Positions 6,269-32,152 of a stretch of DNA of 52,582 nt are shown piece after piece. The notes under the pieces were generated by a model, which was not told the origin of the DNA, made no database searches, and worked only from the letters and a program-made list of their open reading frames with translations. Source of the stretch: Candidatus Saccharimonadota bacterium (lineage in GTDB: Bacteria > Patescibacteriota > Saccharimonadia > Saccharimonadales > JAQGHD01); assembly GCA_028288965.1 (NCBI GenBank), contig JAQGHD010000027.1, forward strand, positions 1 to 52,582, in the 5' to 3' direction. A program made the translations under genes and the position numbers. Position 1 is the first letter of the stretch, and each line of letters opens with the position of its first letter.

Positions 6269-7045
6269 ATGCTTAATTTAGCTACGGCCAACCTTTCACC
6301 CGAGCAAAGCATTGCTTTGGCACTAGATACCACTGATCTGCATCAAGCCGAACTGTGGATTCGCAGCGCTAAAGCAGCTGGACTAATTATTGTTAAAAAT
6401 GGCATAGAACTTGATTATGGGCATAACCCAAAAGATTTGTCAGAGCTGGCTGCTGATTATGGCATGGAGTGGATTGCCGATCTAAAAACTTTAGGTATAG
6501 CTAAAACAGTCGGCATTGCTTTGCCAGAAATTGTAAATCTGCCGCATCAACCAGTAGGCATTACCATGAGCACGCAATCAGGAGTAGAATCGTTAAAATT
6601 AGCTCAAGCAATTGCCGGCGAGCGGGGCATTACTATTTTTGGAGTAGCCCTCTTGTCCTCAATAGACCAGGACGAAACGCTCAAGTACAACAAAGCCTTG
6701 CCCAGAACCGTTATGTGGCGAGAAACTCAGCGGGCGGTTGATGCCGGAGTATGGGGTCTGGTTAGTTCGGGTGAGGAAATCGCTCGAGTTAAACGGTTCA
6801 AAAAAACCAGAGGGCTGACAACGCTGGTGGTTGGCACCAGATCCGAAGGCGTCGTGATTGAGGGCGATGACCAGCGCCGCGTTACCAGTATTTTTGAGGC
6901 CGCTAACGCCGGTGCTGACCTGATTGAGATCGGTCGCCAGGCCACGGCCAAAGGTAGTGTTGCGGAAACTGCTTTAAGGCAGGTTGGTCGTGAAATTGCC
7001 AAAGGTAGAATTGCTATGAAGCAGCCGAATCACCGAGTAAGTTGA
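6269..7045 (+). CDS. pyrF: Orotidine-5'-phosphate decarboxylase-like protein (divergent)
   Basis: LALD, KNG, DLK, GTR, GDDQRR and IGR segments; the second Asp of DxKxxD is replaced by Gly. Confidence 0.7.
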   Translation: MLNLATANLSPEQSIALALDTTDLHQAELWIRSAKAAGLIIVKNGIELDYGHNPKDLSELAADYGMEWIADLKTLGIAKTVGIALPEIVNLPHQPVGITMSTQSGVESLKLAQAIAGERGITIFGVALLSSIDQDETLKYNKALPRTVMWRETQRAVDAGVWGLVSSGEEIARVKRFKKTRGLTTLVVGTRSEGVVIEGDDQRRVTSIFEAANAGADLIEIGRQATAKGSVAETALRQVGREIAKGRIAMKQPNHRVS

Positions 7046-7703
7046 CGTATTTTATGTCTTGATTAGGGTGTTTTTTGCGGTAAGCATAGCCATGGCCCAA
7101 GGGCTTATCAACGACTATAGGCATGCCCTTGGCACAAGGGCCATTACGCAAGCAATCCTCTTTGTCCCAGGCTTCATAATAAGCTTTGCTTAGCTTGCGA
7201 AACTTTGGAACACCCAGACTCTTTTGATTGACTCCTAGGTTTGCGGCGATAGCCGTCATGCCCACCACTTCACAGTCGGCCTCCATGGCTATGCCGAGCA
7301 GTTGCTGGTAGGTGAACTGCGTGTTCACCATGCCATCAAGAATCAAAACCCGTCGGCCTACCAGCGCCTCAAAGAATCCATTGCGACTAAGTTCCTGGCC
7401 TTCTGGCTCCTTTTTATCGGCAAACACAGAGGTTACATCAATGCCGGTGGTGTCTATTAATTGCTCAGTAGCTAACGTTCCAAGGGGGATTGCTCCCACG
7501 GCAGCGTGTAAAACCGCTTCTACACCTTCGTCAGCAAACGGCTCTACCATCATCCAGGTAATTTCCTGCAAACGGCGAATATGGGGCAGCAAGGGATCAA
7601 CATTGCAGTAACCGGTTAAGTGCATACCGCTATTACCAATAAACTGGTTGCCAGTATTTAAAAATAGGCAGCCTTTGTCAACAAGTTCGCGCTGAACGTC
7701 CAT
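7014..7703 (-). CDS. pyrE: Orotate phosphoribosyltransferase-like protein (divergent)
   Basis: SGMH..GYCN, AVGAIPL, FADK and GRRVLILDGMVNT (degenerate PRPP loop); convergent with the pyrF-like gene and overlapping it. Confidence 0.6.
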   Translation of the reverse strand: MDVQRELVDKGCLFLNTGNQFIGNSGMHLTGYCNVDPLLPHIRRLQEITWMMVEPFADEGVEAVLHAAVGAIPLGTLATEQLIDTTGIDVTSVFADKKEPEGQELSRNGFFEALVGRRVLILDGMVNTQFTYQQLLGIAMEADCEVVGMTAIAANLGVNQKSLGVPKFRKLSKAYYEAWDKEDCLRNGPCAKGMPIVVDKPLGHGYAYRKKHPNQDIKYVNLLGDSAAS

Positions 7704-7782
7704 AGCCAATCCCTCTGCTTTTTACTCGCTAAAGTATACCAGCTTGTTTGTCATGCCAGGCAATAGTTGTTAAAATATATGT

Positions 7783-7891: not shown

Positions 7892-9337
7892 ATGAATTAT
7901 TTTGTTACTACCTCCATACCGTATGTAAACGGTGAACCGCACGTTGGCTTTGCCCTTGAATTACTGCAAGCCGATGTGTTGGCCCGCTACGCTCGTGCTC
8001 AAAAAATGCCAACCTTATTTAGCACCGGTACCGATGAACACGGCGGCAAAATTGCCGAGAAAGCTAAAGAGCTGAAAATTACTCCCAAGCAGTATGTCGA
8101 TCAGATGAGCAAAAAATTTCGTGACCTAGAGAAACTGCTCAATGTCAGCAACGATCGGTTTATTCGCACCACCGATCCCGGGCATGAGCAGCGCGCCCAA
8201 ATTATCTGGAAGGCCATTGCTAAAGATATTTACAAAGGCAAATATTCTGGTTGGTACTGTACCGGCTGTGAAAGCTTTGTCACCGAGGCGGTGGCTAAGG
8301 CCAACAAAGGCATTTGTCCGCTCCATAACCGTCCGTACGAGAAGTTAGAAGAAGAAAATTACTTCTTTAAACTCAGTGCCTACAACGAGCAAATCACCAG
8401 GGCCATTACTGATGGCAAGTTGCGAATTATTCCAGATAGTCGTAAACACGAGATCTTAAATGTACTAAAGAGCGGCATAGAAGATATTAGTATTTCTCGG
8501 CCCAAAGAAAAAATCTCGTGGGGCATACCAGTGCCCGATGACCCAACCCAGGTTATGTACGTCTGGTTCGAGGCGCTGATGAACTATATTACGGTGCTCG
8601 GCTATCCAGAGCATCAGGACTTTAAGAAGTTCTGGCCAGCTAATGTGCAGCTAATAGGCAAAGACATTTTGCGGTTTCATGCCGCCATTTGGCCCGGCAT
8701 ATTACTGAGTTTGGGTCTTCCCTTGCCCCACACCCTGTACGTGCACGGCTTTATCACTATTGAAGGCAAAAAAATCAGTAAAAGTACCGGCAATTTTGTG
8801 ACACCAGAAGAAGTTATCAAGAAATATAATGTCGACACGCTGCGCTACTACCTGTTGCGCCATATTCCTAGTTATGAGGATGGTGACTTCAGTTGGGACC
8901 GCATAGAGCAGGCCTACAACAACGAGCTAGCCAATGAGCTTGGCAACGGCTTACAGCGCACGGTAGCTATGATTAGTAAGTATCAAAACGGTATTATCGG
9001 TGACATTCCGCCCTCTCGGCACGATACTGCTCAGTACACGCAGGCTCTGGCCAACTGTCGGTTTGATCAGGCACTGGACGAGGTTTGGGAAATTGTCCGC
9101 GGATTAAATCAATATATCGAAGAAGAAAAACCTTGGGCTTTAGCTAAAGCTAACGAAGCGGAGCATTTACAAGAAGTGTTAGCTAATCAGGCCAGTGATT
9201 TGTTGCAAATCGCTGACTTGCTGGAGCCGTTTATTCCCGACACGGCCGTAAAAATTCGCCACTCCTTAGGGGAAGGGGTGGTCCGCCCCCTCAAGGAAAC
9301 ACTGTTCCCTAAGCACGAGACAGCCGCCCCGGCTTAA
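7892..9337 (+). CDS. metG: Methionine--tRNA ligase (short form)
   Basis: IPYVNGEPHVG, GTDEHG, Zn-knuckle CTGCE, YVWFEAL, GKDILRFH and KISKS. Confidence 0.97.
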   Translation: MNYFVTTSIPYVNGEPHVGFALELLQADVLARYARAQKMPTLFSTGTDEHGGKIAEKAKELKITPKQYVDQMSKKFRDLEKLLNVSNDRFIRTTDPGHEQRAQIIWKAIAKDIYKGKYSGWYCTGCESFVTEAVAKANKGICPLHNRPYEKLEEENYFFKLSAYNEQITRAITDGKLRIIPDSRKHEILNVLKSGIEDISISRPKEKISWGIPVPDDPTQVMYVWFEALMNYITVLGYPEHQDFKKFWPANVQLIGKDILRFHAAIWPGILLSLGLPLPHTLYVHGFITIEGKKISKSTGNFVTPEEVIKKYNVDTLRYYLLRHIPSYEDGDFSWDRIEQAYNNELANELGNGLQRTVAMISKYQNGIIGDIPPSRHDTAQYTQALANCRFDQALDEVWEIVRGLNQYIEEEKPWALAKANEAEHLQEVLANQASDLLQIADLLEPFIPDTAVKIRHSLGEGVVRPLKETLFPKHETAAPA

Positions 9338-9362: not shown

Positions 9363-10151
9363 TTATGGCCCGAGGGCTAGCTGTATAAGCACGCGGTGCG
9401 AACCAAAGAGGAGCCCATCTAGGCTGTCTGTCGAGAACCAACTCACAGCTTCTACTTCTGGGTTTTCCGGGGTTTCGCTATACATTTCAAACTGTTGAGC
9501 CCGAACCGTCTCATTATCTAACTCAAAGCGTACAGCTGTTGTTTCCGGCCAGGCATTGGCCGTAGCCCGTAAATCAGCCACCGGGCCTTGATAAATGGTC
9601 TGAACGCTGGGTTCAAGCTGCTCAAGATCGAGGTTAGCTTCTTCACGCGCTTCACGCATAGCAGCCCGCAGGCCATTCTCCCCAGGATCAACAAAACCAC
9701 CAGGCAAGGCCCACGCCCCAGTATCGCGACGCTTAATAAGTAACACGTGTGGCACCTCAAGATCGCGGCGGATAATAATTGGATCGCCAGTGTAGTTTGG
9801 CCCCCAGTTCCGGTAAAAGCCTTTGCCGGTAACAACTCCAATGTTGGGATTGCTTACCATATCATCGAACCATGGATGCAAGGGGCGCCCATAACTATCA
9901 AAACGTAAGTTATGATTGGCGAGTGCTAATTGTTCGGGAATGGTTGGAACTTGTCCACCCGATGTTTCCCAAAGTCCTAAGGGTAACACGGGCGGCTCCC
10001 AATCTGGCGCGTCTGTGAATAGGCGTTCGTTAAAGCCTGGGTAGCCTGGATAGGTCTTTACCGGGAGGTTTTGAGCTAACAGCTCTAGGTTACTGCGCAT
10101 AAACAGTTCTCGATTTACCGGTAAGTGGTCAGTGTTTTGTAGAGTTTCCAT
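9363..10151 (-). CDS. Nudix hydrolase, NUDT9-like ADP-ribose pyrophosphatase
   Basis: GKG..WGPNYTGDPII and Nudix box WALPGGFVDPGE...AAMREAREE. Confidence 0.85.
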   Translation of the reverse strand: METLQNTDHLPVNRELFMRSNLELLAQNLPVKTYPGYPGFNERLFTDAPDWEPPVLPLGLWETSGGQVPTIPEQLALANHNLRFDSYGRPLHPWFDDMVSNPNIGVVTGKGFYRNWGPNYTGDPIIIRRDLEVPHVLLIKRRDTGAWALPGGFVDPGENGLRAAMREAREEANLDLEQLEPSVQTIYQGPVADLRATANAWPETTAVRFELDNETVRAQQFEMYSETPENPEVEAVSWFSTDSLDGLLFGSHRVLIQLALGP

Positions 10152-10153
10152 AA

Positions 10154-11431
10154 TTATTGCTCCTTGACGGCAAAGATCTGCTGGTAGCGTTCAACTAATT
10201 CGTTGTTGCCGGTGTGTTTACTGCTATCATCGCTTAATTTTACTGTATCAGCTCCTTTATTTACTTCAGGTACGTAGACATGCGTAGCTTTCATAACTTG
10301 GTTTATGGCTTTCAGCCCCAGATCGTTGCTTAAATCTGTGCCAACACCAAAATTCTTATTAATCTGGTCCTTGAATTCTTGTTTTATGTTGTCAACGCTG
10401 TCCGGCAAATGTAAGCCATCGCTAAAGGTTATGGACTTGTCGAGAGGATTAAGACCCATGTTGGTGTAAAACTTGAGAACTTTTTCGCCGTATTTTATAG
10501 GGTCACCCGAATCCTGGCGGGTAGCCTGGTATTTTTCGGCTCGCTCCAACGTAAAATCTTCAAAAAAGAAATCAGTCCCAAAGGTATCGCTTAAGGCGAT
10601 AGCCAGCTCGTCACCGTAAAAATCATACCAATCGTCTAGCATCTTACCATGAGAGGCGCGAATATCCTCACCCTTGGCATCGGCTATGGCAGCATAGACC
10701 ATAGGGTTCTCGTGCGCAAAGGTTCCGATGGCTTTTAAGCCCAGTTCTTTAGCGAGCGCAACGCAGCTGGTGCCCACAAAGTTCTCTGGACATTCGTTTT
10801 TTAGTCGCTCATCAACGTGACGCTGCCAGCGCAGGCTAAAGCGGCGCCTGGTACCAAAATCAGCTAACTTAACATCCGGATTGGCTTGTAAGTAGGCAAT
10901 TTTTTCACTTAATCGGTGGTCTCCTTCGGCGTATACATCAAAGATGTCTAGACCTTGTGCGCTTACGCAGTTTTCAAAGTACATTTCGCTGACCTGGCTC
11001 ATAACAATGGTTTCCCAGAAGGTGACTAGTGGCCACTTACCGGTAGATTCTATAGCCAAGTCATCGGTGCTCCGGTCGTGTCTGACGGTGATCTCCGGCA
11101 GGGAATTGTGTTGGAGGTAATCCAGATATTCATCAGCAAACATCCGCTCGCCTTTGGCGCTATGCAAACTTCTAAAGTACTCAATTTCTTCCTGGGCAAA
11201 GCCGTTTTGCCGGATGGTTTCCAGACGATCCTGCAAATCCTCAGCTGCCACGTAGTCGGCCAGGCGCTGATTGCCACGATTTTTAAAGGTAAAAGTCACT
11301 TCGGCATCTGGTTGATATTCATGCTGGAATTGGCTCATGGTTGGCTTGTAGTAGTCCAGCCCTGCTGACAGCATAGTTTCTTCTTTAAAGGGACCATATT
11401 CGATGGGGGAGGTCAGTGTTTGGTGTGTCAT
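10154..11431 (-). CDS. pncB: Nicotinate phosphoribosyltransferase
   Basis: DYYKPTM, DFGTRRRFS, GTFAHE, SDTFG, RQDSGDP, FSDGL and VKLSDD..K motifs. Confidence 0.93.
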   Translation of the reverse strand: MTHQTLTSPIEYGPFKEETMLSAGLDYYKPTMSQFQHEYQPDAEVTFTFKNRGNQRLADYVAAEDLQDRLETIRQNGFAQEEIEYFRSLHSAKGERMFADEYLDYLQHNSLPEITVRHDRSTDDLAIESTGKWPLVTFWETIVMSQVSEMYFENCVSAQGLDIFDVYAEGDHRLSEKIAYLQANPDVKLADFGTRRRFSLRWQRHVDERLKNECPENFVGTSCVALAKELGLKAIGTFAHENPMVYAAIADAKGEDIRASHGKMLDDWYDFYGDELAIALSDTFGTDFFFEDFTLERAEKYQATRQDSGDPIKYGEKVLKFYTNMGLNPLDKSITFSDGLHLPDSVDNIKQEFKDQINKNFGVGTDLSNDLGLKAINQVMKATHVYVPEVNKGADTVKLSDDSSKHTGNNELVERYQQIFAVKEQ

Positions 11432-11442
11432 TTCATGCCTCC

Positions 11443-12114
11443 TTAGACGGCCAGCGCTTCTAATTTACGTAAGTACTCATCAGTGGTCACAAAGTGTACG
11501 CCGGCAGCTTCTAGCTCATCTATGGCCTTGAGGCCGGTAGGTTGGGCGACTGATTCGGTAGCGTCAACCGCAATGGTGACGTCTAAGCCCAGCTTGGTTC
11601 TTAGATCCAAGGCTGTAGCTTTCACGCAGTAATCCAGTGCTAGGCCCCCCAGCAAAACAGCTCGGGTGCCGCGTTGGCGCAGCCAGTGCTCTAGGTTTTG
11701 ACCGCGTTCGTTGACACCGTTCAGGCCGGTGTAGCTGGTGTCTAGAGCCCCATCAGTTAGCTCTTCTTGACCTTTTTTAAAAGCGACAGCTAGCTTAGGC
11801 ACAATGATTTCTGGGTGCAATTCAGCACCTGGTGTATTGGCACGGCAGTGTGGCGGCCAAGTGGTCATAAAGTTCGGCTCGTTGCCATCCAATGCAAAAT
11901 GCGCGGTGCGCTCTGGGTGCCAGTCTTGGGTAGTAAAGATATCCATACCCCGTAAACTAAAGGCTCCGAGTAATGTATTCAGGTACGGAACAATGTGCTC
12001 ACCTTCCATAATGGGCAGCTCGCCAAAGCCAGGCACGTCTAAACGTTCGCCTTCACTGGCGGGCATAAAGCCGCGCTGAGCATCGATAATTCCTAGTGCG
12101 GTTGGGTGGTTCAT
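11443..12114 (-). CDS. pncA: Nicotinamidase/pyrazinamidase
   Basis: IIDAQRGF, TQDWHP..HF, WPPHC and GLALDYCVKATALD. Confidence 0.92.
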   Translation of the reverse strand: MNHPTALGIIDAQRGFMPASEGERLDVPGFGELPIMEGEHIVPYLNTLLGAFSLRGMDIFTTQDWHPERTAHFALDGNEPNFMTTWPPHCRANTPGAELHPEIIVPKLAVAFKKGQEELTDGALDTSYTGLNGVNERGQNLEHWLRQRGTRAVLLGGLALDYCVKATALDLRTKLGLDVTIAVDATESVAQPTGLKAIDELEAAGVHFVTTDEYLRKLEALAV

Positions 12115-12139
12115 GATTGTCTCCTTCTCTGTTACATAG

Positions 12140-12209
12140 TAAGTGTAGAATCAACACTATTTAGTGTTAGTTACAGACTACTCCATAGTTAGTGTCTTGT
12201 CAACACTTA
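12140..12209. promoter_or_regulatory. Three NrtR-type operator boxes in the pncA/ARH divergent region
   Basis: TAAGTGT-agaatca-ACACTAT (12140-12160), TTAGTGT-tagttac-AGACTAC (12161-12181), TTAGTGT-cttgtca-ACACTTA (12189-12209); GT-N7-AC core. Confidence 0.8.
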
Positions 12210-12263
12210 TTTTATTTGATTTAATGTTGTAAGGAGTAATAAACTTAATGAAAGGGGGGGATC

Positions 12264-13223
12264 ATGGCTATAGATAAGCTAGGAGCAGTAGGAGAAAATT
12301 TATTAGTGGCTGTTGGCTACGGTGACTCAGCTGGCTTGCCGGCAGAAACACTAACGCCGGAGCAAATCCAGGATAAGTTTGGACGGCTGAGTGGGCTTAT
12401 TCCGATTGATAATAAATTTATGGGTAAACACCCAATTGGTAGATGGAGCGATGATACAAAGCTGTCATTGGCCATAGCCGAAGCCTTAATAGACAGCGAA
12501 GGTTTTAACATGAAGGCAATTGCCACAAACCATGTCGGGGCATTGCGCGACCCCGTCAATCGGGGCTGGGGTAGCAGTACTCGTAAAAGCATTAAGCGGT
12601 TGCGTAAAGACGGCAGCTGGCGTACTAGTGGAAGCCAGGAAGGTGAGGGTAACGGGGTGCTTATGAAGTTGAGCCCCTTGGCGCTCTGGCAGACAGTAAA
12701 ACAACCCGTCGCCGCTGATAATCAAGTCGAAGCCATAGCCCGCATGACGCATGCCAATACACTCAGTGTAGTCACGGCTCTGGTTCACAGAGATATTTTA
12801 GGAGCCTTATTGATGGGTTATTTAGAGCCGGCAGATGTGCCCCAAGCTGGCGCCGCGCAGGCCGAAATGTACGAGCAGCACTTAGGTGAACCCAGCCAGG
12901 TAACGTCTGGACTGCTTGGCCGGCTGGCCTTAGACAGGCGTATTACAGACAGGACTATTGCTGATCTAACGCCAAAGGCCGGTTTTTGGTCACCAGAGAC
13001 GCTGGTTATGGCTTACGGAGCCTTTGCCCGCACCCCACACTACCCAGATAACATCTATGACGTGATTAATTTAGGGGGCGATACCGATAGTACTGGTTCA
13101 ATTGTAGGAGCTATGTCGGCCATGCACCAAGGTGATCTAGAACATCCAGCCGATGTGGCTCAACTTGAGCAAGTAGACTACTTACGCAAAGTCGGCCAGG
13201 AACTAGTAGCCATGTTGAGCTGA
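12264..13223 (+). CDS. ADP-ribosylglycohydrolase (DraG/ARH family)
   Basis: GYGDSAG, WSDDT, GNGVLM, MTH and GGDTDSTGSIVG motifs. Confidence 0.9.
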   Translation: MAIDKLGAVGENLLVAVGYGDSAGLPAETLTPEQIQDKFGRLSGLIPIDNKFMGKHPIGRWSDDTKLSLAIAEALIDSEGFNMKAIATNHVGALRDPVNRGWGSSTRKSIKRLRKDGSWRTSGSQEGEGNGVLMKLSPLALWQTVKQPVAADNQVEAIARMTHANTLSVVTALVHRDILGALLMGYLEPADVPQAGAAQAEMYEQHLGEPSQVTSGLLGRLALDRRITDRTIADLTPKAGFWSPETLVMAYGAFARTPHYPDNIYDVINLGGDTDSTGSIVGAMSAMHQGDLEHPADVAQLEQVDYLRKVGQELVAMLS

Positions 13224-13226
13224 GTT

Positions 13227-13529
13227 TTACTGCTCCAAACGAGTTTCAATTTCAAAAAAGCTAGTAATTTCACCAACAGTTTTGCCACATGGCAGGACAT
13301 CAACGGTGTGATAATCATGAGCGCCACTAAGCACAAAGTGCAGCCAATCTTCATCTGGCTCCCCAAATGATAGAACCTGCACGCCGCTTTCATTAGTAAA
13401 TCCTTCGGTATCAACCAGTTCATGCCGTGCTGCAATAACTCCACCTAACACAGCGCGCAATACACTGCTGCATGCACTCTGGCATCTGTCCTGCTCTTGG
13501 CAGGTCGGACGCAAATATTCACTACCCAT
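13227..13529 (-). CDS. Hypothetical protein (100 aa, Cys-containing)
   Basis: ORF with an AAGGGAG SD-like site, downstream of nrtR; no family recognised. Confidence 0.5.
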   Translation of the reverse strand: MGSEYLRPTCQEQDRCQSACSSVLRAVLGGVIAARHELVDTEGFTNESGVQVLSFGEPDEDWLHFVLSGAHDYHTVDVLPCGKTVGEITSFFEIETRLEQ

Positions 13530-13613
13530 AGCTCACTCCCTTTTAGCTTGTACTGACCAATTTTAGTCTCGTGCTTGCAGCCCAGATAGGAAAAAATTCG
13601 CCCTCACGAGCGG

Positions 13614-14315
13614 CTAATCAAAACTGCGTGAGAGCGTTTCTAGGTGCTGTTTGTTGAACTTGTAGAGCTTAGCAGGACGGTGAGCACCTTCACGGAATAA
13701 ATCACCGGTGGGCGCAATGAGATTGAGGTCTAAGAATTTCTTTCGGAAATTGCGTTTATCTAGTTCGCGGCCAAAAACGGCTTCGTAGGCTTTTTGCAGT
13801 TGGGTAAGGGTAAAGAACTTGGGCAACAGCGCGTAGATGGCGTTGGTATAGGTGATTTTGGCACTGAGGCGATCATGGGCGTACTTGATAATGTCGGCAT
13901 GATCATATGCCAAGTTTTTAGGGAGATGGCTGATTGGGAAGAATTGCGGATTTTGGGTGGTTTTGCTGGTTTTTGGGGCTAAATTGTGGCCCAAACAAGT
14001 ATAGGTCACCGAAACAGCATGACCGCGAGGGTCACGGGCCACCGTGTCAAAGGTATACAGTTGCTCCACTAGGGCAAAGTCCTTGACCGAAAAGCCGGCT
14101 TTGGCTCGCAAAATACGATTAAGAGCCTGCGTGGTGGTTTCGCCTTGGGCGTTGTAACCGCCGGGTAGGGCCCAATAATCCTTAAAGGGCTCTTCTGGCC
14201 GACGGATTAAAAGCACATTTAATTGGTTGTTGATAAGCTGCAGAACTACCCCGTCAACTGTCAGGATGGGGGGTACGTATTCTCCGCTATATTTGGCAGT
14301 CATAATGTCTATCAT
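13614..14315 (-). CDS. nrtR: Nudix-related transcriptional regulator
   Basis: Degenerate Nudix domain (WALPGG, EQLYTF, RDPRG) plus C-terminal wHTH (FTLTQLQKAYE..LDKRNFRKK..GAHRPAKLY). Confidence 0.93.
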   Translation of the reverse strand: MIDIMTAKYSGEYVPPILTVDGVVLQLINNQLNVLLIRRPEEPFKDYWALPGGYNAQGETTTQALNRILRAKAGFSVKDFALVEQLYTFDTVARDPRGHAVSVTYTCLGHNLAPKTSKTTQNPQFFPISHLPKNLAYDHADIIKYAHDRLSAKITYTNAIYALLPKFFTLTQLQKAYEAVFGRELDKRNFRKKFLDLNLIAPTGDLFREGAHRPAKLYKFNKQHLETLSRSFD

Positions 14316-14318
14316 ACA

Positions 14319-16244
14319 CTATTCCCAAATAGCGGTATTATACAGATCAGAAGGCATGCGCCAATCGCCCCGCGGGCTGAGCGCCACACTGCCAACTTTG
14401 GCACCATCGGGCAGGCTTGAGCGCTTAAATTGACTGAAGGCAAAGCGCTTATAAAATACCATTAACCACTTATTGATTTCCTCTGGCTGGTACACTCCTT
14501 CAAAGGCTTGGTTGGCCAAAAAACGTATTTTAGCCGGCTCATCGCCCCAACGAATAAGATAGTACAAAAAAAAGTCGTGCAGCTCGTACGGGCCAATAAT
14601 ATCCTCAGTTTTTTGATCAATCTCGCCTTTGGCTGCCCGGGTAAGTTCCGGTGAAACGGGTGTATCGAGTATATCGAGCAGTATGTCTCGGGCTTCGGCA
14701 CCAGCTTGATTATCGGTAATATGCCGGACCAAGTGCCGGACCAGTGTTTTAGGCACCCCGGCATTCACGTGGTAGTGACTCATATGGTCGGCGTTAAAGG
14801 TACACCAGCCCAGCGCAATTTCGCTTAAATCACCAGTCCCCAAGTTGATCCCTTGCAGCTGGTTGCCCTTGTTAAAGAGAATTTCGGTTCGTATGCGGGC
14901 CTGGACGTTTTCGTAGGTAACATCTTGGGTTTGGCCATCATGACCAATGGCCTTGTGCATCTGATGAGCCAGTTGATCGATAGGCACGACTTGGTTTGGG
15001 ACGTTGTACAGCTGGGCTAACTTTACCGCGTTATTTTGGGTACGGTCAGAGCTAGCCACACCTGGCATGGTGTAGGTGCGGATTAAGTCTTTGGGTGGCA
15101 CGCCGATGATTTCTGCTGAACGACAGGCGACTAAAAAGGCCAAAGTAGAATCCAGCCCACCGGACAAACCAAGATGTACATACGGCGTTTTGGTGGCTTG
15201 TAGCCGCCCGGCCAAGCCATGAGCTTGAATGTCGATAATCGATTGTAAACGCTCGGCGCGCTCGGTTTCATTTTCCCAGGTGGGCAAGAAGGGGTGGGGA
15301 TTAATATGAGGACTTGGCACAAACTCAGGGGTGCCTACAACCGTTTTGACCACTTGCCAGCCAACTTTATTTACAAAGTTAGTATCGCGCAGCCGATCAT
15401 GTTTTAGGTGGTCAATATCTATGTCTGCTACTCGCAGCCGCTCATCTTTTGTAAATGGTTTACGTTCGGCTAGTAGGCGGCCATTTTCGGCAATTAACTG
15501 GTGCCCACCCATAACCACGTCCATGGTTGATTCGGTCCAATCACTGCCAGCGTAGACGTAGCCGGCCATAAGCTTGGCGGATTGCATAGCCACCAATTGG
15601 CGACGGTAGGCGGCTTTGCCAACCAGCTCGGGTGAGGCTGATAAATTAGCAATTACTAACGCTCCGTGCTGGGCTTGCTGGATGCTGGGGGCTTCGGCTA
15701 CCCAGAGGTCCTCACAGGTTTCGACGCCAATTTTTGCGCCACCAATGTCAAATAGCAATTCCGTGCCAAAGGGCACGTCTTGCTGGCCAACCCTCACCGC
15801 GGTATTAGGCTGCTGCCAGGTTTGGTACCACCGCTTTTCGTAAAATTCACCATAGGTAGGTAGGTTTTGCTTTGGCACAAGGCCTTTTATGTCGCCATCG
15901 GCTAGCACGGCACTACAGTTGTATAATGCGTTGTCCACCTGCAGAGGCAAGCCAACTACCATGGTCGTTTCGCTACCCCGTGTTTGTTCGGCCAACTGTT
16001 GCAGCCCTGTGCGGGCTTGCTTAAGCAAGCTTTGTTGCTGTACAAGATCACCAATGGAATAGCCGGTCAGACTCAGCTCCGGAAAGACTACCAGGGCCAC
16101 GCCTTGAGCGGTAGCCTCTTTATACAACTCGGTGATTCGAGTAGTGTTAGTGGCTACGTCGGCGATGTTAACTTCAGGGCAGGCAGTAGCCACCCGCAGA
16201 TAACTTTCATATGGCTGGAATTCCAATTGTGATAGCGTTTCCAT
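14319..16244 (-). CDS. nadE: Glutamine-dependent NAD+ synthetase
   Basis: Nitrilase domain (FPELSLTGY, PK..LP.Y.EFYEKR, CEDLW) plus synthetase domain (GLSGGLDST, ENVQAR.R, GTGDLSE). Confidence 0.96.
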   Translation of the reverse strand: METLSQLEFQPYESYLRVATACPEVNIADVATNTTRITELYKEATAQGVALVVFPELSLTGYSIGDLVQQQSLLKQARTGLQQLAEQTRGSETTMVVGLPLQVDNALYNCSAVLADGDIKGLVPKQNLPTYGEFYEKRWYQTWQQPNTAVRVGQQDVPFGTELLFDIGGAKIGVETCEDLWVAEAPSIQQAQHGALVIANLSASPELVGKAAYRRQLVAMQSAKLMAGYVYAGSDWTESTMDVVMGGHQLIAENGRLLAERKPFTKDERLRVADIDIDHLKHDRLRDTNFVNKVGWQVVKTVVGTPEFVPSPHINPHPFLPTWENETERAERLQSIIDIQAHGLAGRLQATKTPYVHLGLSGGLDSTLAFLVACRSAEIIGVPPKDLIRTYTMPGVASSDRTQNNAVKLAQLYNVPNQVVPIDQLAHQMHKAIGHDGQTQDVTYENVQARIRTEILFNKGNQLQGINLGTGDLSEIALGWCTFNADHMSHYHVNAGVPKTLVRHLVRHITDNQAGAEARDILLDILDTPVSPELTRAAKGEIDQKTEDIIGPYELHDFFLYYLIRWGDEPAKIRFLANQAFEGVYQPEEINKWLMVFYKRFAFSQFKRSSLPDGAKVGSVALSPRGDWRMPSDLYNTAIWE

Positions 16245-16255
16245 GATAGTTCTCC

Positions 16256-16324
16256 TTAGTGTAAAAAATACATTTACTTATTCTAAAGTAGCAGGTACAA
16301 TAATTAGTGTCAATACCACACTAA
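16256..16324. promoter_or_regulatory. Two NrtR-type operator boxes in the nadE/nadD divergent region
   Basis: TTAGTGT-aaaaaat-ACATTTA (16256-16276) and perfect TTAGTGT-caatacc-ACACTAA (16304-16324). Confidence 0.8.
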
Positions 16325-16337
16325 CAGGAGATTTGAC

Positions 16338-16946
16338 ATGGAAATAGCAATATTTGGCGGCAGTTTCAACCCACCGACTCGAGCCCACGAGGCCGGTGTT
16401 CAGGCCTGTCTTGATCGGCAGGATATTGATGAGGTGTGGCTGATGCCATCTGGCTATCGGGCTGATAAGCCAGGCTTAGTCGATGATCAAGCGCGGCTGG
16501 AAATGCTACAAATTGTTAAGCGCCAGGAGTTTTATGATAATCCTCGGGTAGTCATCTCGGACTTTGAGCTTAGCCTGCCGCGGCCAACCCAAACTTATAA
16601 AACCATGGGGGCGCTGGCCAGGGCCTACCCTGAGCATAGATTTTGGTTTGTCAGTGGGGCTGATACCTATGCCACCATGCAAAACTGGGAAGGTGGCCAC
16701 CAACTAAAGGCCAGCTTGCCTATGTTGCTCATCCCTCGCATTGGTTATGAGTTACCCGAGCCGACCCAGCAGTTGCGCCAACTGGAAGTACTAGAAGATA
16801 TGGTCGATGGCATATCCTCTAGTCAAGTGCGTGAGCGTTTGGCCTTAGGCGGCCCCATTGAGTTCTTGGTCTGCGACGCCATAGCGCGCTACATTGCTGA
16901 AAAAGGTTTATACCTAGCCAAAGGCTCAAAATATGTAAGCATTTAG
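16338..16946 (+). CDS. nadD: Nicotinate-nucleotide adenylyltransferase
   Basis: FGGSFNPPTRAH, GAD....W and ISSSQVR motifs. Confidence 0.9.
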   Translation: MEIAIFGGSFNPPTRAHEAGVQACLDRQDIDEVWLMPSGYRADKPGLVDDQARLEMLQIVKRQEFYDNPRVVISDFELSLPRPTQTYKTMGALARAYPEHRFWFVSGADTYATMQNWEGGHQLKASLPMLLIPRIGYELPEPTQQLRQLEVLEDMVDGISSSQVRERLALGGPIEFLVCDAIARYIAEKGLYLAKGSKYVSI

Positions 16947-17044
16947 GTAACTGGGGAATGGATGCGATTGCCTATCCGATGAGCATAGCTACCCCTATTC
17001 CGGTAGCTTTGGCTAATTTGATCAAGTTCGGCATACTTAATGGC

Positions 17045-17839
17045 ATGGAACTTGTTGACACTCACTGCCATATTCAATTTCCGGACTATGGCCAAAAAGA
17101 AGGTTTTGATGCCAGTGATGCGATAACCGCTGCTCAAGCCGAGGCTGTAACGCGTTTGTTGTGTGTTGGCACCGATCTGCCAGACAGCCGCCGGGCCATT
17201 GATTTTGTGCAGCAGCGTGATAATTGTTGGGCTACCATTGGGCTGCATCCCCACGAAGGTGCTAGTTATGCGCATGACAATAAGGCCTTAGAGGAGTTTG
17301 CCGCTCTGGTATCGCAGCCAAAAGTAGTGGCGATTGGCGAGTGCGGCTTGGACTATTACTATCATCATTCGCCAAAAGCCGATCAAGAAAAAATACTACG
17401 CTGGCAGCTTGAACTAGCTACCACATACAAATTGCCCTGTGTCTTCCATGTGCGTGACGCTTTTGATGACTTTTGGAAGATAGTTGACAACTATCCAGGC
17501 ATTACTGGTGTCATCCATAGTTTTACGGCCGATAAAAAAGTACTTTTACAAACGCTCCAGCGGGGGTATTATGTTGGCTTGAATGGGATAATGACATTTA
17601 CTCGCACTGAGGCCCAACTCGAGGCGGCAAAAGCCGTGCCGCTTGACAAATTACTCCTTGAAACAGATGCCCCGTTCTTGACTCCTGTGCCATTTCGTGG
17701 TAAAATCTGCCAGCCTAAACATGTGCGCCTAACCGCCCAGTTTTTGGCCAATCTCCGGGGAGAAACTTTATCAGAACTGGCTTCAGCCACTACCGCCAAC
17801 GCCCTATCCCTTTTCAATCTTTCAAACGTTTATGAATAA
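17045..17839 (+). CDS. tatD: TatD family DNase
   Basis: DTHCH, GLHPH, GECGLDY, H.RDA, IHSFT and ETDAPFL; ATG 17045 follows CATACT. Confidence 0.95.
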   Translation: MELVDTHCHIQFPDYGQKEGFDASDAITAAQAEAVTRLLCVGTDLPDSRRAIDFVQQRDNCWATIGLHPHEGASYAHDNKALEEFAALVSQPKVVAIGECGLDYYYHHSPKADQEKILRWQLELATTYKLPCVFHVRDAFDDFWKIVDNYPGITGVIHSFTADKKVLLQTLQRGYYVGLNGIMTFTRTEAQLEAAKAVPLDKLLLETDAPFLTPVPFRGKICQPKHVRLTAQFLANLRGETLSELASATTANALSLFNLSNVYE

Positions 17840-18116
17840 TCAATTACAATCACGAGAACAATATCAAGACGTGCCCGAACCAGTTAAGAGACGGGCTCAA
17901 GTTGAGCGCACCGCTGCCCGGCTAGTTGAAGAAGCTTTGGCTATTGACAGGGTAGTGCACGCCATTATTGAACGCTCACGTAACCCTGCCCCAGCTCAAT
18001 CCGAGTCTCAGCCACCGCAATCCGAAACTCCTACAGATACAACGCCTCCAACTACCCAAGATCCCGAGGTCCTCAGGGCATACATCGATATGATAGGAAA
18101 CCAGCATGATTCGTAA
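17832..18116 (+). CDS. Hypothetical protein
   Basis: Overlaps both neighbours (translational coupling); Pro/Thr-rich linker. Confidence 0.6.
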   Translation: MNNQLQSREQYQDVPEPVKRRAQVERTAARLVEEALAIDRVVHAIIERSRNPAPAQSESQPPQSETPTDTTPPTTQDPEVLRAYIDMIGNQHDS

Positions 18117-18474
18117 AATCTTGAGTACTCTACTAGCTGGTCAAAAAGAAGAGCGCGAAGCCGAGTTGTACCGCAATCTTATTCGTCACGAAGCCAAGAT
18201 TGGCGGCCAATTATTTGGCCCCGTATCAAAAGATGGTCGTCGTGAATTCTTTTGCCTAGACGAAAAAACCTGGATTTGGCATGAAGAATGGGTAGATAAC
18301 ACCGGCCAACGTCAAATTCGCACGACGCGTTACGATGTCCGACCTAACGGACTATTAAAAGCCCAAGACGGACAGTATTATCAGAGCGTTTCGCCTAATG
18401 AGGCTGCTCGGTTCCTGCAAGCTGTTCGTTTGTATCACCAGCGCGTTAACGACGAGCTGTACGCCAACGTTTAG
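18106..18474 (+). CDS. Hypothetical protein
   Basis: Globular-looking 122 aa (RREFFCLDEKTWIWHEEW); operon-like overlap. Confidence 0.75.
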   Translation: MIRKILSTLLAGQKEEREAELYRNLIRHEAKIGGQLFGPVSKDGRREFFCLDEKTWIWHEEWVDNTGQRQIRTTRYDVRPNGLLKAQDGQYYQSVSPNEAARFLQAVRLYHQRVNDELYANV

Positions 18475-26042: not shown

Positions 26043-27050
26043 TTAGTCGAGGACGACGTAGTCGAAGACGTAGTTGGTGCCGGCGGCTGGGTTAGTGGCG
26101 CAGACGCTAAAGTTGGTGACAGAGCGATTGGTGTAGTAACTGAGGCTGCCGGTATTGCTATTGACCGGACTAATGATAACGTGCGGCGTGCCATTAAACT
26201 TTTGCGTAAAGTTGACGGTAATAAAACAGCCGGCCGCGGGACTACTGCCAGTGTTAATACTAACAGTGCCGGCCGTATCGGTGCCACTGACGCCGGCCGT
26301 GCCTCCGCCACCTAGTGCCGAGCCGCCGGAGCTGCTTGGTGAGGCACCCGTAGGATCTATGTGGTGACCCAGCTGCAAATCACCAGTTAGCTGCAATACG
26401 CCGACCGTAATTTGCGGGGCCGACAACGGGCCGGTGAATGAACCGCCACTGCTTACAGATAGACTTTTTTGAACTGTGAGCGTGCCTTGCACCGAAGCGT
26501 TGCCAGCAATCGCCAGGCTGTTTATTTGTACTTGGTCGAAACTACTTTTTCCAGATACGGTGATGCCGGGCAGGCTCAAAGCGCCACCTACGCGAATAGT
26601 ACCGGCTACGTCAAGGCTGTCACGCACCAGGACCGTACCGGCAAAGACCGCGTTTGATTCAATATTAAGCGTTTGCTTGGGGTCGCCTACCTTGGATGTG
26701 CTGCTTTTTAAATCTTTTAAAGCTTTATCGGTGAGCGTTTGATCGGATGCGGTGGTAGCAGTTTTTCGGTTATAAAGTACGGCTACACTAATAGCAACTC
26801 CGGCTATGACAATGAGCAAAATAAAGGCCAAGAAGTAAATATTTAATTTACCAAAAAAGTGTTTGACGCCATCTTTACGTGATTTTTTGCTGGGTTTCTG
26901 GTCCTTGTCGGTTTTTTCGGTGGTCAGGTTAGTGTCGGCCGTGGCGTCAAGTGACAGTCCAGACTCTAGCGATCCAGAATGGGGGGCTTCAGCTGGCTGA
27001 TCTGGCTTTTTGTCGGCGGCTGGCTCGGCAGTTTTATTAGAAGAATCCAT
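26043..27050 (-). CDS. Membrane-anchored fibre-like surface protein
   Basis: Disordered N-terminus, one TM, short-period beta repeats (LDVAGT/IRVGGA/LAIAGN/ASVQGT/LTVQKS), Gly/Ser linker, C-terminal VNFTQKFNGTPHVIISP domain. Confidence 0.7.
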   Translation of the reverse strand: MDSSNKTAEPAADKKPDQPAEAPHSGSLESGLSLDATADTNLTTEKTDKDQKPSKKSRKDGVKHFFGKLNIYFLAFILLIVIAGVAISVAVLYNRKTATTASDQTLTDKALKDLKSSTSKVGDPKQTLNIESNAVFAGTVLVRDSLDVAGTIRVGGALSLPGITVSGKSSFDQVQINSLAIAGNASVQGTLTVQKSLSVSSGGSFTGPLSAPQITVGVLQLTGDLQLGHHIDPTGASPSSSGGSALGGGGTAGVSGTDTAGTVSINTGSSPAAGCFITVNFTQKFNGTPHVIISPVNSNTGSLSYYTNRSVTNFSVCATNPAAGTNYVFDYVVLD

Positions 27051-27179
27051 TACGTCCTAGGGGTCTGCACCTACTCTTATATTTCTCTTATCATACTATG
27101 CATTAGCCGTAAGCGTAAACGCCTATAAGCATAGGCATATTTGCGGTTTTATGGGCCTTTGAGGCAGAATATATAGATA

Positions 27180-27914
27180 ATGAGGCTACCAAAACACAAA
27201 CTCAGATCAGTAAGCTACGTGTTGTCAGCGTTGTTATTCGTACTGGCCTCGCCAGTATTTGCTCAATCGAGCTCCTCAAATTACTCCACGAATGAGTATT
27301 ATTTTGGTACCGGTGGTGGAGATAGTTCTTCGGCTAATTATTCGGGTTGTCAATCATCCGGAGCAGCAGGTGTCGGTAGCACCAACAGTAGTAATTTTTC
27401 AGCCCAAGGCGGCTTTTGTACGTCCGACGCACCCTATTTAGAAATGTCCGTCACTAACTCTAACGTCGATCTTGGCTACTTAAGTAAGATTGCCGCCACT
27501 ACCAGTACTGGAACATTCACCGTTAAGGCTTATTTGGCCTCCGGCTACGTGGTTACCAATGCCTCTGACCCGCCGTCCAACGGGTCGCATAACCTTACCG
27601 GACTGACTTCACCCTCGGCATCGAGCGTGGGTGCCGAGCAGTTTGGCATCAATCTAGTGCACAATACCAGCCCGGCTACCTTTGGCACGAACCCGGTACA
27701 AGTACCGGATTCGACCTTTAGCTTTGGTGCCGCTTCCACCGGCTATGACACGGCTAATCTGTATAAATATGTTAAGGGCGACATTGTTGCTAGCTCTACC
27801 AAGAGCTCCGGCGAAACAGATTATACCATTGCCTATTTATTTAATATCAGCAGCCTGACGCCGGCTGGGCAGTATACGTTTAACCATACGATTGTGGTAA
27901 CGGCTACGTACTGA
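27180..27914 (+). CDS. Secreted WxL/pilin-like protein 1
   Basis: Signal peptide (VFA-Q), EQFGINL, C-terminal strand TPAGQYTFNHTIVVTATY. Confidence 0.65.
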   Translation: MRLPKHKLRSVSYVLSALLFVLASPVFAQSSSSNYSTNEYYFGTGGGDSSSANYSGCQSSGAAGVGSTNSSNFSAQGGFCTSDAPYLEMSVTNSNVDLGYLSKIAATTSTGTFTVKAYLASGYVVTNASDPPSNGSHNLTGLTSPSASSVGAEQFGINLVHNTSPATFGTNPVQVPDSTFSFGAASTGYDTANLYKYVKGDIVASSTKSSGETDYTIAYLFNISSLTPAGQYTFNHTIVVTATY

Positions 27915-28037
27915 TAAAAAGTTTATCCACACCCTGTCTACTAGATAATTGGCAAAATTGCGTGAAATATTGCACTTAAGCTTTGCCCTATGCTACACTC
28001 CTCTCATATAGCATAAGCACATCGGTGCGCTTGAAAT

Positions 28038-29144
28038 GTGAGACAAAGAGTGCGGCAACGCCACAAAACACTACGTTTTAGACTAGGATTAATGATTGCC
28101 GGCTTGTTGGTGGCCAACATTCTGGCGGTACTTGTAAGTGTTTCTAAAGCCCAGGCTTACACCTTAATAACCAGTCGTAGTATTAAAATGAGTAACTCGG
28201 CTATCGGCGGCGTAGCGATCCATCACGTTGCTTTCACAACAGCCGCTACGTACAACGTGGCCTCCGTTGAAATTCAGTATTGTACTGACCCATTCATTGG
28301 CGCCGCGTGTACAGCGCCGACGGGATTAGATGTTAATGAAGCCACCCCGCTGACCATTAACAACCAGGTCGGTATTACTGGCATGACGCTTCATGCCATC
28401 ACCTCCACCAACCGGGTGGTCTTAACTCGCTCCACAAGCAGTATTACCTCTGCCACAGCCGTATCGTTTGACCTAGGAACTGGCGTCGGCAACGATGGCA
28501 TCAAGAACCCCACGACGCTCGGAACTTTTTACGCCCGGATTGGCACCTTCGCGTCCACCGATGGAACGGGCGCCCAACAGGATGCCGGTGGCGTGGCCCT
28601 GAGTACCGCCAACCAGTTGACCATTACTGCTAAAGTTCAGGAAACCTTGACTTTCTGTGTCTATGTTACGGGTGTAAACTGCGCCGGTGGTACCGGTACA
28701 GCCTTGGCGCTTGGTGACGTTAACGGCGTGCTCAGTAGCACCACCACCGATTACACCGGTTCTGCCAAGTTTGGCCTAGCTTCTAATGCCCCAGCGGTGG
28801 TTGTGCGCATGAAGGGCGCTACACTTACGGCCGGGACGTTTACGATAACCCAGCAAGGCACCACTTGTACGGCCGATTCGACCACGTCCTCGGTTGAACA
28901 ATTTGGAGTGCGAGTAACACCAGGCACCAATGTTACAGCCGATCCGGTCTATGCTTGCGGCAGTGGACTGCATGCTTTTGACGGCGCTAACACGGTTGGC
29001 ACCTATGGAGATGATATTGCCAGCACTGCGGTCCCCCTGGATGAAGTACAGAGCACCATGGAATTCAACGCCAAAGCGGCTACTACTACCGAAGCTTCGG
29101 TTTACACAACCACGCTAACGTTTATTGCCACAGGTACATTCTAA
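28038..29144 (+). CDS. Secreted two-domain WxL/pilin-like protein 2
   Basis: Signal peptide (AQA-Y), Cys pairs, EQFGV, C-terminal YTTTLTFIATGTF; paralog of the next gene. Confidence 0.65.
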   Translation: MRQRVRQRHKTLRFRLGLMIAGLLVANILAVLVSVSKAQAYTLITSRSIKMSNSAIGGVAIHHVAFTTAATYNVASVEIQYCTDPFIGAACTAPTGLDVNEATPLTINNQVGITGMTLHAITSTNRVVLTRSTSSITSATAVSFDLGTGVGNDGIKNPTTLGTFYARIGTFASTDGTGAQQDAGGVALSTANQLTITAKVQETLTFCVYVTGVNCAGGTGTALALGDVNGVLSSTTTDYTGSAKFGLASNAPAVVVRMKGATLTAGTFTITQQGTTCTADSTTSSVEQFGVRVTPGTNVTADPVYACGSGLHAFDGANTVGTYGDDIASTAVPLDEVQSTMEFNAKAATTTEASVYTTTLTFIATGTF

Positions 29145-29163
29145 CTCTAGAATATAAGCAGTT

Positions 29164-30207: not shown

Positions 30208-30282
30208 TGGACGCCTAAGCTTGTCACGGCTTGCAATAATCTGTTACGATACACGGAGCATTTACGGGTGCAACAGAGTTTT

Positions 30283-31257: not shown

Positions 31258-31276
31258 AATAAAACTATAAATTTGT

Positions 31277-32152
31277 ATGAATCGTTTTAGACTATCAAAA
31301 TCAGTCTGGTTGCTGAGCGTGTTACTGGGGTTACTGCTCAGCTTGTCGGCCACGCCAGTGCTGGCCGTAACCAATCCTCAATCTGGGCCAATTGGTTTAC
31401 AGGGCACGGTTGCTTCGCCACCGCCAACGCAGGCTGCCGTCATTAGTTTGCCCAGGGCCGGACAGGTCTTTACGGCTATTCCTATAACTGTCAGTGGCCT
31501 ATGCCCTAAAGGCACTGTAGTTAAAATTTTTAAGAATGGTGTATTTGCTGGTTCGGCTGACTGTGCCAATGGCAGCTTTTCGTTGCAGATAGATTTATTC
31601 AGCGGCCAGAATGATCTGATAGCTCGGGTCTACGACTCTTTGGATCAAGCTGGTCCTGATTCGACCGTAGTAACGGTTACCTTCCAAGATGCCACCTATG
31701 GTACTTTTGGCAATCATGTAAGTTTAACCAGTAGTTACGCCAAAAGAGGCGCCAATCCTGGCCAAACACTCAGTTGGCCAATAATTTTAAGTGGCGGCAC
31801 GGCACCGTATGCCATTAGTGTCGATTGGGGCGATGGCAAGGCACCGGATCTTATTAGCCTGGCAGCGCCTGGTACTTTTACGCCAACGCACGTCTACGCC
31901 GCTGCCGGCGTTTATAACGTTATTGTTAAGGCCACTGATAAAAACGGCGTTGCCGCCTTTCTGCAGCTGGTGGCTATTGCTAATGGCGCTGTTGGCCAAA
32001 CCTCCTCCCAGGCTGGATCCACCAATGCGGCGACTAAGGCCAATAAGTTTCTGTGGGGGCCGGCCATACTGCTGGTGCCACTTACGGTCACGGCCTATTT
32101 CCTAGGTCGTCGCTCCCAACTCCAAACACTCAAAAAACGCTTCAATCAGTAG
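31277..32152 (+). CDS. Membrane-anchored Ig/PKD-domain surface protein
   Basis: Signal peptide, Ig-like domain, PKD motif VDWGDG...HVYAAAGVYNV.V.ATD, C-terminal TM. Confidence 0.75.
   Translation: MNRFRLSKSVWLLSVLLGLLLSLSATPVLAVTNPQSGPIGLQGTVASPPPTQAAVISLPRAGQVFTAIPITVSGLCPKGTVVKIFKNGVFAGSADCANGSFSLQIDLFSGQNDLIARVYDSLDQAGPDSTVVTVTFQDATYGTFGNHVSLTSSYAKRGANPGQTLSWPIILSGGTAPYAISVDWGDGKAPDLISLAAPGTFTPTHVYAAAGVYNVIVKATDKNGVAAFLQLVAIANGAVGQTSSQAGSTNAATKANKFLWGPAILLVPLTVTAYFLGRRSQLQTLKKRFNQ

Follow-up and report, generated by a model that had tools for sequence, protein, structure and literature searches.

The window analyzed here, a 52,582-nucleotide stretch of DNA from a Candidatus Saccharimonadota bacterium (order Saccharimonadales; assembly GCA_028288965.1, contig JAQGHD010000027.1), contains an island of approximately 7.6 kb in which eight open reading frames (ORFs) are enclosed by metG and tatD, among them genes for NAD salvage, for ADP-ribose turnover, and for a repressor of the NrtR family (Table 1). 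The genome bearing the window is referred to as G000, and the window is its contig 3. With 915,775 bases in 30 contigs and a completeness of 94.4%, G000 fits the reduced genome assumed in an initial annotation that was made from the sequence alone. The genes named in that annotation were located between metG and tatD, and their families were confirmed using Pfam and NCBIfam. The proposed arrangement in two divergent units was also borne out, with pncA-pncB-Nudix reading away from the ADP-ribosylglycohydrolase gene (ARH) and nadE-nrtR reading away from nadD.

Table 1. Genes and candidate regulatory elements of the island and its two flanks (window coordinates)
Feature	Position	Strand	Evidence and remarks
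metG, left flank	7892-9337	+	TIGR00398 455.8 bits (cut-off 336); PF09334 E 1.1e-102
Nudix, NUDT9-type ADP-ribose pyrophosphatase (predicted), 262 aa	9363-10151	-	PF00293 E 1e-14; last gene of pncA-pncB-Nudix unit
pncB, nicotinate phosphoribosyltransferase	10154-11431	-	PF04095 and PF17767; TIGR01514 278.3 bits (cut-off 269.55)
pncA, nicotinamidase, isochorismatase family	11443-12114	-	PF00857; NF008623 86 bits (cut-off 174)
Three NrtR-operator-like palindromes between pncA and ARH	12141-12159, 12162-12180, 12190-12208		one mismatch each
ARH, ADP-ribosylglycohydrolase (ARH/DraG family)	12264-13223	+	PF03747 E 2.8e-42, 145.8 bits; divergent from pncA
Orphan 100-aa ORF, doubtful gene	13227-13529	-	no family in Pfam or NCBIfam
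Terminator-like hairpin	13599-13612	-	directly 3' of nrtR stop; consensus scan only
nrtR, Nudix-related repressor	13614-14315	-	PF21906 NrtR_WHD E 1.2e-24 and PF00293; NF050029 140.6 bits
Operator-like palindrome spanning nrtR start and nadE stop	14303-14321		one mismatch
Promoter-like site	14364-14337	-	just upstream of nrtR-start palindrome; consensus scan
nadE, glutamine-dependent NAD synthetase, 641 aa	14319-16244	-	NF002730 750.1 bits (cut-off 473); CN_hydrolase (glutaminase) and NAD_synthase domains
Operator-like pair between nadE and nadD	16257-16275, 16305-16323		two mismatches and perfect, respectively; 48 bp apart
Promoter-like TTTACT-17-TACAAT	16273-16301		just before perfect operator and nadD start; consensus scan
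nadD, island-type NaMN adenylyltransferase	16338-16946	+	TIGR00482 117.3 bits (cut-off 112.45)
tatD, right flank	16958-17839	+	PF01026 E 1.1e-73

For comparison, an even sample of 401 genomes from 255 genera of the order was surveyed together with a separate phylum sample of 401 genomes, and 33 other pncB-bearing loci were compared with the island of G000 (genomes, loci, and families are cited below by handles beginning with G, L, and f).

All four enzymes of the Preiss-Handler route were supported at the family level. PncB, NadD, and NadE scored above their NCBIfam cut-offs; PncA fell below that of NF008623, yet seven of seven Protein Data Bank (PDB) matches were nicotinamidases (best 3pl1, E 3e-25). 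When PncA was compared to Mycobacterium tuberculosis PncA (3pl1), the metal-site residues (Asp/His/His/His), the Lys, and the catalytic Cys were aligned, with the catalytic Asp outside the displayed alignments. A second nadD is present in G000 on contig 6 (16459-17025; L073:3370-4047) and is 22% identical to the island gene. The island nadD is orthologous to the nadD of other islands, and the contig-6 nadD is orthologous to that found in 48 of 61 relatives, and those relatives lack nadE and pncB almost without exception. The contig-6 enzyme likely adenylates nicotinamide mononucleotide (NMN) rather than NaMN, for example NMN from the NAD-dependent ligase, which was found in G000. The nadD of the comparable Pseudomonas cluster discussed below is likewise a second copy. 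NAD kinase was not found in G000 using the one profile PF01513.

The repressor is composed of a Nudix domain (PF00293, E 1.4e-12, residues 24-144) and an NrtR winged-helix domain (PF21906, E 1.2e-24, residues 161-220). Its Nudix box is degenerate, with R-I-L-R-A-K replacing RE-x2-EE, and given this dead catalytic box, NrtR is predicted to be a non-catalytic sensor only. Searching the 915-kb genome for the palindrome TAGTGT-N7-ACACTA (a consensus derived here and not compared with published NrtR logos) with at most one mismatch returned five sites, and all five were inside the island: three in the pncA-ARH intergenic region, one across the start of nrtR, and a perfect copy between nadE and nadD. 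Mononucleotide shuffles of the genome gave an expectation of 1.8 one-mismatch sites and 0 perfect sites. The same motif was found in the equivalent intergenic regions of G017, a genome of another family, and beside nrtR in four genomes that carry nrtR only. Across the 33 homologous islands (567,905 bases), 90 sites were recovered in 31 loci, compared to a single site for a reversed-pattern control. These sites nearly always occur as pairs with a spacing of approximately 48 bp, located either upstream of pncA or in the nadD-nadE intergenic region, and the two loci without sites end before both of these regions. Control by NrtR, as put forward in the initial annotation, is therefore strongly indicated, and the palindromes are predicted to be binding sites of the island's own NrtR. 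By analogy, NrtR would be released from them by ADP-ribose, given that binding and ADP-ribose release are established for the NrtR proteins of other bacteria (Rodionov 2008, PMC2330246).

Further operator-like sites, and nrtR genes without pncB, were also observed. A perfect palindrome in G055 is inside a serine hydroxymethyltransferase gene and was set aside as chance. In G009, a one-mismatch site is located between a glutaredoxin gene and a gene of unknown function. A third site in the larger island of G017 (L003:5647-5665; contig 1, 95646-95664) lies between two divergently oriented genes for proteins of 270 aa and 749 aa without known function, and these genes are possible further NrtR targets. 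Within the order sample, nrtR without pncB was found in 27 of 401 genomes, and in family f10, nrtR was found in nine of 11 sampled genomes and pncB in none. Just past the NrtR operator beside metG, nrtR-only genomes of three families carry an ORF of 53-58 aa (L016:8465-8626, L019:8464-8634, and L020:6793-6969; 51-60% identical) that belongs to no family and is missing from G000. In such genomes, the repressor seems to act on some other target.

On sequence and model evidence, the Nudix protein is assigned as a two-domain NUDT9-type ADP-ribose pyrophosphatase, with ADP-ribose specificity predicted. Its best solved relative is human NUDT9 (PDB 1q33; E 2.8e-14 using the single sequence and 2.6e-29 using a profile of 24 island homologs), and identity to NUDT9 and to the NUDT9-H domain is 28-29%. 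The AlphaFold (AF2) model (pLDDT 90.6) was compared to the PDB using the VIA-align wide search. The top folds were TRPM2 NUDT9-H (8sr7; Z 16.2, root-mean-square deviation (rmsd) 3.5, 215 aligned residues) and NUDT9 (1qvj; Z 15.5, rmsd 3.5, 217 aligned residues), and both alignments cover the two domains (model residues 15-262), whereas other Nudix enzymes match the core only (approximately 120-140 residues, Z ≤ 13.2). The Nudix box G-x5-E-x7-RE-x2-EE is intact and reads GFVDPGE-x7-REAREE, with E167, E170, and E171 invariant or nearly so among the 24 island homologs. Human NUDT9 and NUDT9-H share the two-domain fold and the intact box with a bacterial protein that is encoded in a salvage operon.

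For ARH, PDB matches were obtained to 8za7, MJ1187, 2cwc, and DraG. The motifs YGD..GLP.E, SDDT, TH, and GGD.DS were invariant in 12 of 12 island ARHs, and SDDT and GGDTDS align with the solved ARHs. Acidic motifs of this kind hold the two metal ions in the ARH/DraG family.

Across the order sample, pncB was detected in 35 of 401 genomes (27 of 255 genera, at least 15 families), and nrtR in 61, with 34 of the 35 pncB holders among them. The phylum sample had pncB in five of 401 genomes, four of which are outside the order and have copies only 31-40% identical; this rarity is consistent with the expectation of the initial annotation that such bacteria generally lack cofactor pathways. A search of viral contigs returned two distant pncB genes only (39% identity), and a single-protein query of genome contigs returned two loci only. 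Among the 33 other loci, all six core genes are present in 15, and pncB, pncA, and nrtR are each present in 30-33. Both metG and tatD border the island in 14 loci spread over many families, and neither flank is within approximately 9 kb in 12 loci, mainly from families f64, f7, f52, and f14 and from short contigs. The metG-tatD junction of G017 likewise holds an island whose two end modules match those of G000 in kind and orientation. Eleven of the 33 other islands include ARH, always between nrtR and pncA. Additional genes include PnuC (six islands), NadR (seven), a short NH3-type NadE (five), an IMPase-family gene (two), and an APH-family kinase (three). The commonest addition is His_Phos_1 (16 of 33), which is always divergent from pncA, sometimes in the ARH operon, and absent from G000. 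No chaperone or nuclease was recognized among the 19 additional proteins scanned (representatives of recurrent genes and six single ones). As an observation apart, the His_Phos_1 proteins (L078:7601-8476, L003:9135-10016, and 14 further islands) are weakly similar to alpha-ribazole phosphatase.

The history of the locus was examined using the junction, two gene trees, and base composition. As the initial annotation had noted, metG and tatD are often adjacent: tatD is within 300 bases of metG in 40 of 60 metG-bearing relatives of the same order, so that the island counts as an insertion when compared with this usual arrangement. In the remainder, the gap is 0.4-2.4 kb in 13 genomes, 7.6 kb in G000, and 19.3 kb in G017, with the two genes on different contigs in four genomes and far apart in one. 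Relics of the island were found at the junction in seven of the 13 genomes with small inserts. In four of them (G009, G041, G055, and G058), the relic is nrtR alone; in the other three, it is an IMPase-family gene (G034), an island gene of no family (G042), or an APH-family gene (G050). Of ten junction ORFs tested, three matched genes of the island. An island tree was built from pncB, nadE, and nrtR for 32 of 35 holders (three were excluded for having fewer than two usable markers). Family labels cluster on this tree, with 16 changes relative to a minimum of 14 and a shuffled mean of 23.9. G000 is grouped with G224, G017, G217, G111, and G061 (Shimodaira-Hasegawa-like approximate likelihood ratio test (SH-aLRT) 99). 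A flank tree was built using FastTree from four flanking genes for the 66 of 94 genomes with at least three markers; it places G000 near G224 and G017 near G217, and the island tree largely agrees with it. An earlier seven-gene local tree (50 of 61 genomes) placed G000 beside G041 (SH-aLRT 95), a placement that the four-gene tree does not repeat, so that any exact sister assigned to G000 is tentative. The GC content of the island (0.46-0.52) is in line with the rest of the window, and codon-position GC matches that of core genes. No tRNA was found in the window, and no bounding repeats and no integrase or transposase among the island ORFs.

These data suggest that the locus is likely an old accessory island that was repeatedly lost, with some exchange within the order and no fresh gain in G000. 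The initial annotation had called the island acquired; for G000 this is unsupported, given that the same island occupies the metG-tatD junction in 14 of 33 other loci, that G000 and G224 are associated in both trees, that relics remain at the junction, and that no compositional or mobility signal is present.

The following mode of action is proposed. NrtR would repress both divergent unit pairs at the TAGTGT-N7-ACACTA copies, and accumulating ADP-ribose, a breakdown product of NAD, would release it and switch the units on. PncA would then deamidate nicotinamide, PncB would convert nicotinate and phosphoribosyl pyrophosphate (PRPP) to nicotinate mononucleotide (NaMN), the island NadD would adenylate NaMN, and NadE would complete NAD by amidation. 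ARH would free ADP-ribose from ADP-ribosylated substrates, and the NUDT9-type enzyme would cleave ADP-ribose to AMP and ribose-5-phosphate, by which the inducer would be removed and a negative feedback closed. The source of NAD would be scavenged niacin as well as the cell's own NAD breakdown products.

Similar regulons are described in Rodionov 2008 (PMC2330246), including nrtR-nadD<#>pncA-pncB-nadE in Pseudomonas aeruginosa/fluorescens (Table 1 of that paper), #nrtR-pncA-#pncB-nadD-nadE in Clostridium acetobutylicum, and #nrtR1-draG-SCO1765 in Streptomyces. Of the arrangements given there, the nearest to the island is that of Pseudomonas, with the Streptomyces nrtR-draG pairing added. The Pseudomonas regulon has five genes in common with the island, likewise arranged in divergent units with NrtR sites in between; the island differs in that nrtR follows nadE rather than nadD, in the addition of the NUDT9-type enzyme and ARH, and in its 0.9-Mb host without detectable prs. 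The Streptomyces operon likewise places an ADP-ribosylglycohydrolase under NrtR control, but as listed it has no NAD salvage genes, whereas both functions are joined in one regulon in G000. The type of regulon is thus already known, and the island adds a member with a new host lineage and with the behavior of an accessory element under decay at a single junction. In the literature library that was searched, NrtR was linked with Patescibacteria or Saccharibacteria in no paper, and searches on Lmo0067, on NAD salvage with Patescibacteria, and within two papers on metabolism of the candidate phyla radiation (CPR) returned nothing on this island.

Two further groups of systems were compared. The ARG-centric systems in section 3.8 of Iyer, Burroughs, Anantharaman, and Aravind 2022 (PMC9503650) are predicted to act against viral ADP-ribosylation and have Nudix-helix-turn-helix repressors and linked phosphatases. 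The island resembles them in having an ARG without a linked transferase or sirtuin and a Nudix-winged helix-turn-helix repressor, and islands of relatives also have a tightly linked phosphatase. It differs from the systems of that section in lacking chaperone, restriction-endonuclease-fold, and ARPP modules, in the phosphatase superfamily, and in its core of NAD biosynthesis; the G000 island itself has no linked phosphatase, peptide-binding chaperone, or nuclease module. The initial annotation had compared the logic of the island to phage NAD reconstitution. Among the phage pathways (NARP1, NARP2, and NARP3; PMC13464706 among the sources), NARP1 re-joins ADP-ribose and nicotinamide directly, and the NARP3 pair is PnuC-NadR. 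The island is like NARP1, NARP2, and NARP3 in that NAD would be rebuilt from breakdown products or precursors, and PnuC-NadR is present in six to seven of the 33 homologous islands. Unlike these phage pathways, however, the island is predicted to degrade ADP-ribose and to use nicotinamide via the four-step Preiss-Handler route, and it is cellular, chromosomal, and repressor-controlled, with no PnuC in G000.

Taken together, we consider it probable (roughly 70%) that the island is an NrtR regulon for NAD homeostasis and an old accessory module of the order (class Saccharimonadia) that was lost many times and exchanged to some extent. It is kept by roughly one in eleven species of the order. NAD homeostasis is the most likely role because the additional genes in islands of relatives are NAD-metabolic and because published NrtR regulons, such as those cited from Rodionov 2008 (PMC2330246), hold the same five genes.

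Several findings weigh against this interpretation, some concerning function and others strict vertical descent. No prs above the TIGR01251 cut-off was found in the 94.4% complete G000 (best 31 bits relative to a cut-off of 113), nor in G017 or four of five further island holders; prs is present in 13 of 61 genomes of the order. PRPP for PncB must consequently come by another route, and the initial annotation overstated the case in describing salvage as complete. Other phosphoribosyltransferases are present in G000. PnuC was not found in G000, and no niacin transporter was identified, other transporter families not having been searched. NrtR scored 140.6 bits relative to the NF050029 equivalog cut-off of 400 and is thus a member of the Pfam family rather than an equivalog of the curated set. 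Sirtuins were not found in five genomes (G000, G017, and three island-less relatives), and five ARH-bearing genomes (G000 and G017 among them) yielded neither a macrodomain nor an ADPrib_exo_Tox-type transferase (PF03496). A DRAT search (PF07357) was negative in five of five genomes but was silent in controls too and hence uninformative. A purely metabolic reading leaves the substrate of ARH unexplained. With regard to descent, approximately unbiased (AU) tests rejected monophyly for f51 (p 8e-86) and f7 (p 6e-4) and not for f71 (p 0.118), these groups having been picked after the tree was seen. NadE is of two types (43-47% and 53-67% identical to that of G000), and at least 11 changes of island state are required among the 66 genomes of the flank tree, which is unrooted and on which gains and losses are indistinguishable. 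The congeneric genomes G018 and G083 differ cleanly at the junction, with 110 bases (L013:6900-7009) in the former and a 10.7-kb island (L084:3217-13923) in the latter between flanks of 85-87% DNA identity, which implies that turnover at the junction is recent in places. Finally, species relationships were determined from 4 to 7 island-adjacent genes, not from genome-wide markers.

As an alternative role, the initial annotation had suggested a counter-measure against NADases or ADP-ribosylating toxins, which here could come from a host, a competitor, or a phage. In that case, ARH would remove the modification, the ADP-ribose set free would induce the regulon, and NAD would be rebuilt by salvage. 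The position of ARH under NrtR operators agrees with this suggestion. Also in its favor, the island proteins that differ most between G000 and G017 are ARH, Nudix, and pncA (39%, 40%, and 32% identity, compared to 56-70% for pncB, nadE, and nrtR), and the genomes examined yielded no transferase, sirtuin, or macrodomain, which is the selection criterion in Iyer et al. 2022 (PMC9503650). Those authors report phosphatase coupling in more than half of their systems, and a phosphatase is paired with the pncA-divergent unit in 16 of 33 islands; this phosphatase, however, is of the histidine-phosphatase superfamily, which is not listed in the cited section. ARH is also optional (11 of 33), whereas pncB, pncA, and nrtR are nearly constant, and the variable genes are NAD-metabolic (PnuC, NadR, and NadE) rather than nucleases or chaperones. 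PADLOC gave a weak generic Nudix match only, no gene for a toxin or NADase and no phage gene was noticed near the island, and NrtR-controlled pncA-pncB-nadD-nadE clusters are ordinary housekeeping regulons in the bacteria covered by Rodionov 2008 (PMC2330246). A defensive role is consequently regarded as unlikely. The same low odds are given to a self-priming alarm loop of ARH, NrtR, and the NUDT9-type enzyme, by which an epibiotic bacterium would respond to ADP-ribosylation damage. ARH at its basal level would strip ADP-ribose placed on proteins or nucleic acids by a host, competitor, or phage transferase, and the freed ADP-ribose would open the NrtR regulon, so that more ARH would be made, NAD rebuilt, and the inducer then destroyed. 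If true, such a loop would be a cellular counterpart of phage NAD reconstitution and the first anti-ADP-ribosylation defense tied directly to NAD resynthesis. Slimmest of all is the chance that ARH reverses an ADP-ribosylation switch of the cell itself, on the pattern of DraT/DraG, its link to salvage being no more than a common promoter region. DraG-like and bacterial ARH structures are its nearest solved relatives, and the Streptomyces nrtR-draG operon (PMC2330246) offers a parallel; yet no transferase was found in five ARH-bearing genomes (two families searched, the DRAT search being uninformative), and ARH is missing from most islands.

The remaining alternative concerns origin rather than role, namely a recent horizontal acquisition of the island as a block, from outside or within the order, by recombination at metG and tatD. 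It could account for the adjacency of metG and tatD in most relatives (40 of 60), for the presence of nrtR only in G041, the nearest relative of G000 in the first local tree, and for the clean difference between G018 and G083, and according to the AU tests, some island genes have moved between members of the order. The G000 island proteins, however, are only 32-70% identical to those of any other island, so that a recent donor is not apparent. Outside the order, pncB is 31-40% identical in the phylum sample, and 39% in the best viral contigs. Both trees pair G000 with G224, GC and codon-position GC match core genes, and no integrase, tRNA, or bounding repeat was found. A recent block transfer into G000 is accordingly considered very improbable, and the old accessory regulon remains the preferred interpretation.

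Under the preferred interpretation, production of NAD from niacin would be an accessory trait in small-genome, host-dependent bacteria (35/401 and 5/401 for pncB in the order and phylum samples). Piecemeal loss at one junction would provide a natural series for the study of deepening host dependence, and the distribution offers a hint for cultivation, as it may tell lineages able to use niacin from those that require NAD or its nucleotides. The operator motif permits prediction of NrtR regulons across the order. The recurrent unexplained partners (ARH, the histidine phosphatase, and the small ORFs that follow the operator where nrtR occurs alone) are targets for biochemistry.

The small ORF that the initial annotation included in the island does exist as a reading frame (100 aa) but is doubtful as a gene. 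No homolog was found in the 33 homologous islands, in the rest of G000, or among 5.8 billion proteins (besides itself), and it sits behind the terminator-like hairpin that directly follows the nrtR stop. Its Atlas model is poor (pLDDT 0.38), and structural neighbors (TM 0.36-0.48) were disregarded for that reason.

Other features of the window were recorded. Just upstream of metG (6269-7709) are pyrF and a pyrE-like phosphoribosyltransferase gene, and several PRPP users are present in G000 without a recognized PRPP source. At least 51 genomes of the order have a conserved 122-aa ORF with no Pfam family (18106-18474 in the window) beside tatD, with copies 32-70% identical to that of G000 (58 loci). 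Further downstream (26043-32152), six ORFs of 244-368 aa have no Pfam family and may encode surface proteins; one of them gave a sub-threshold match to a WxL-interacting peptidoglycan-binding domain.

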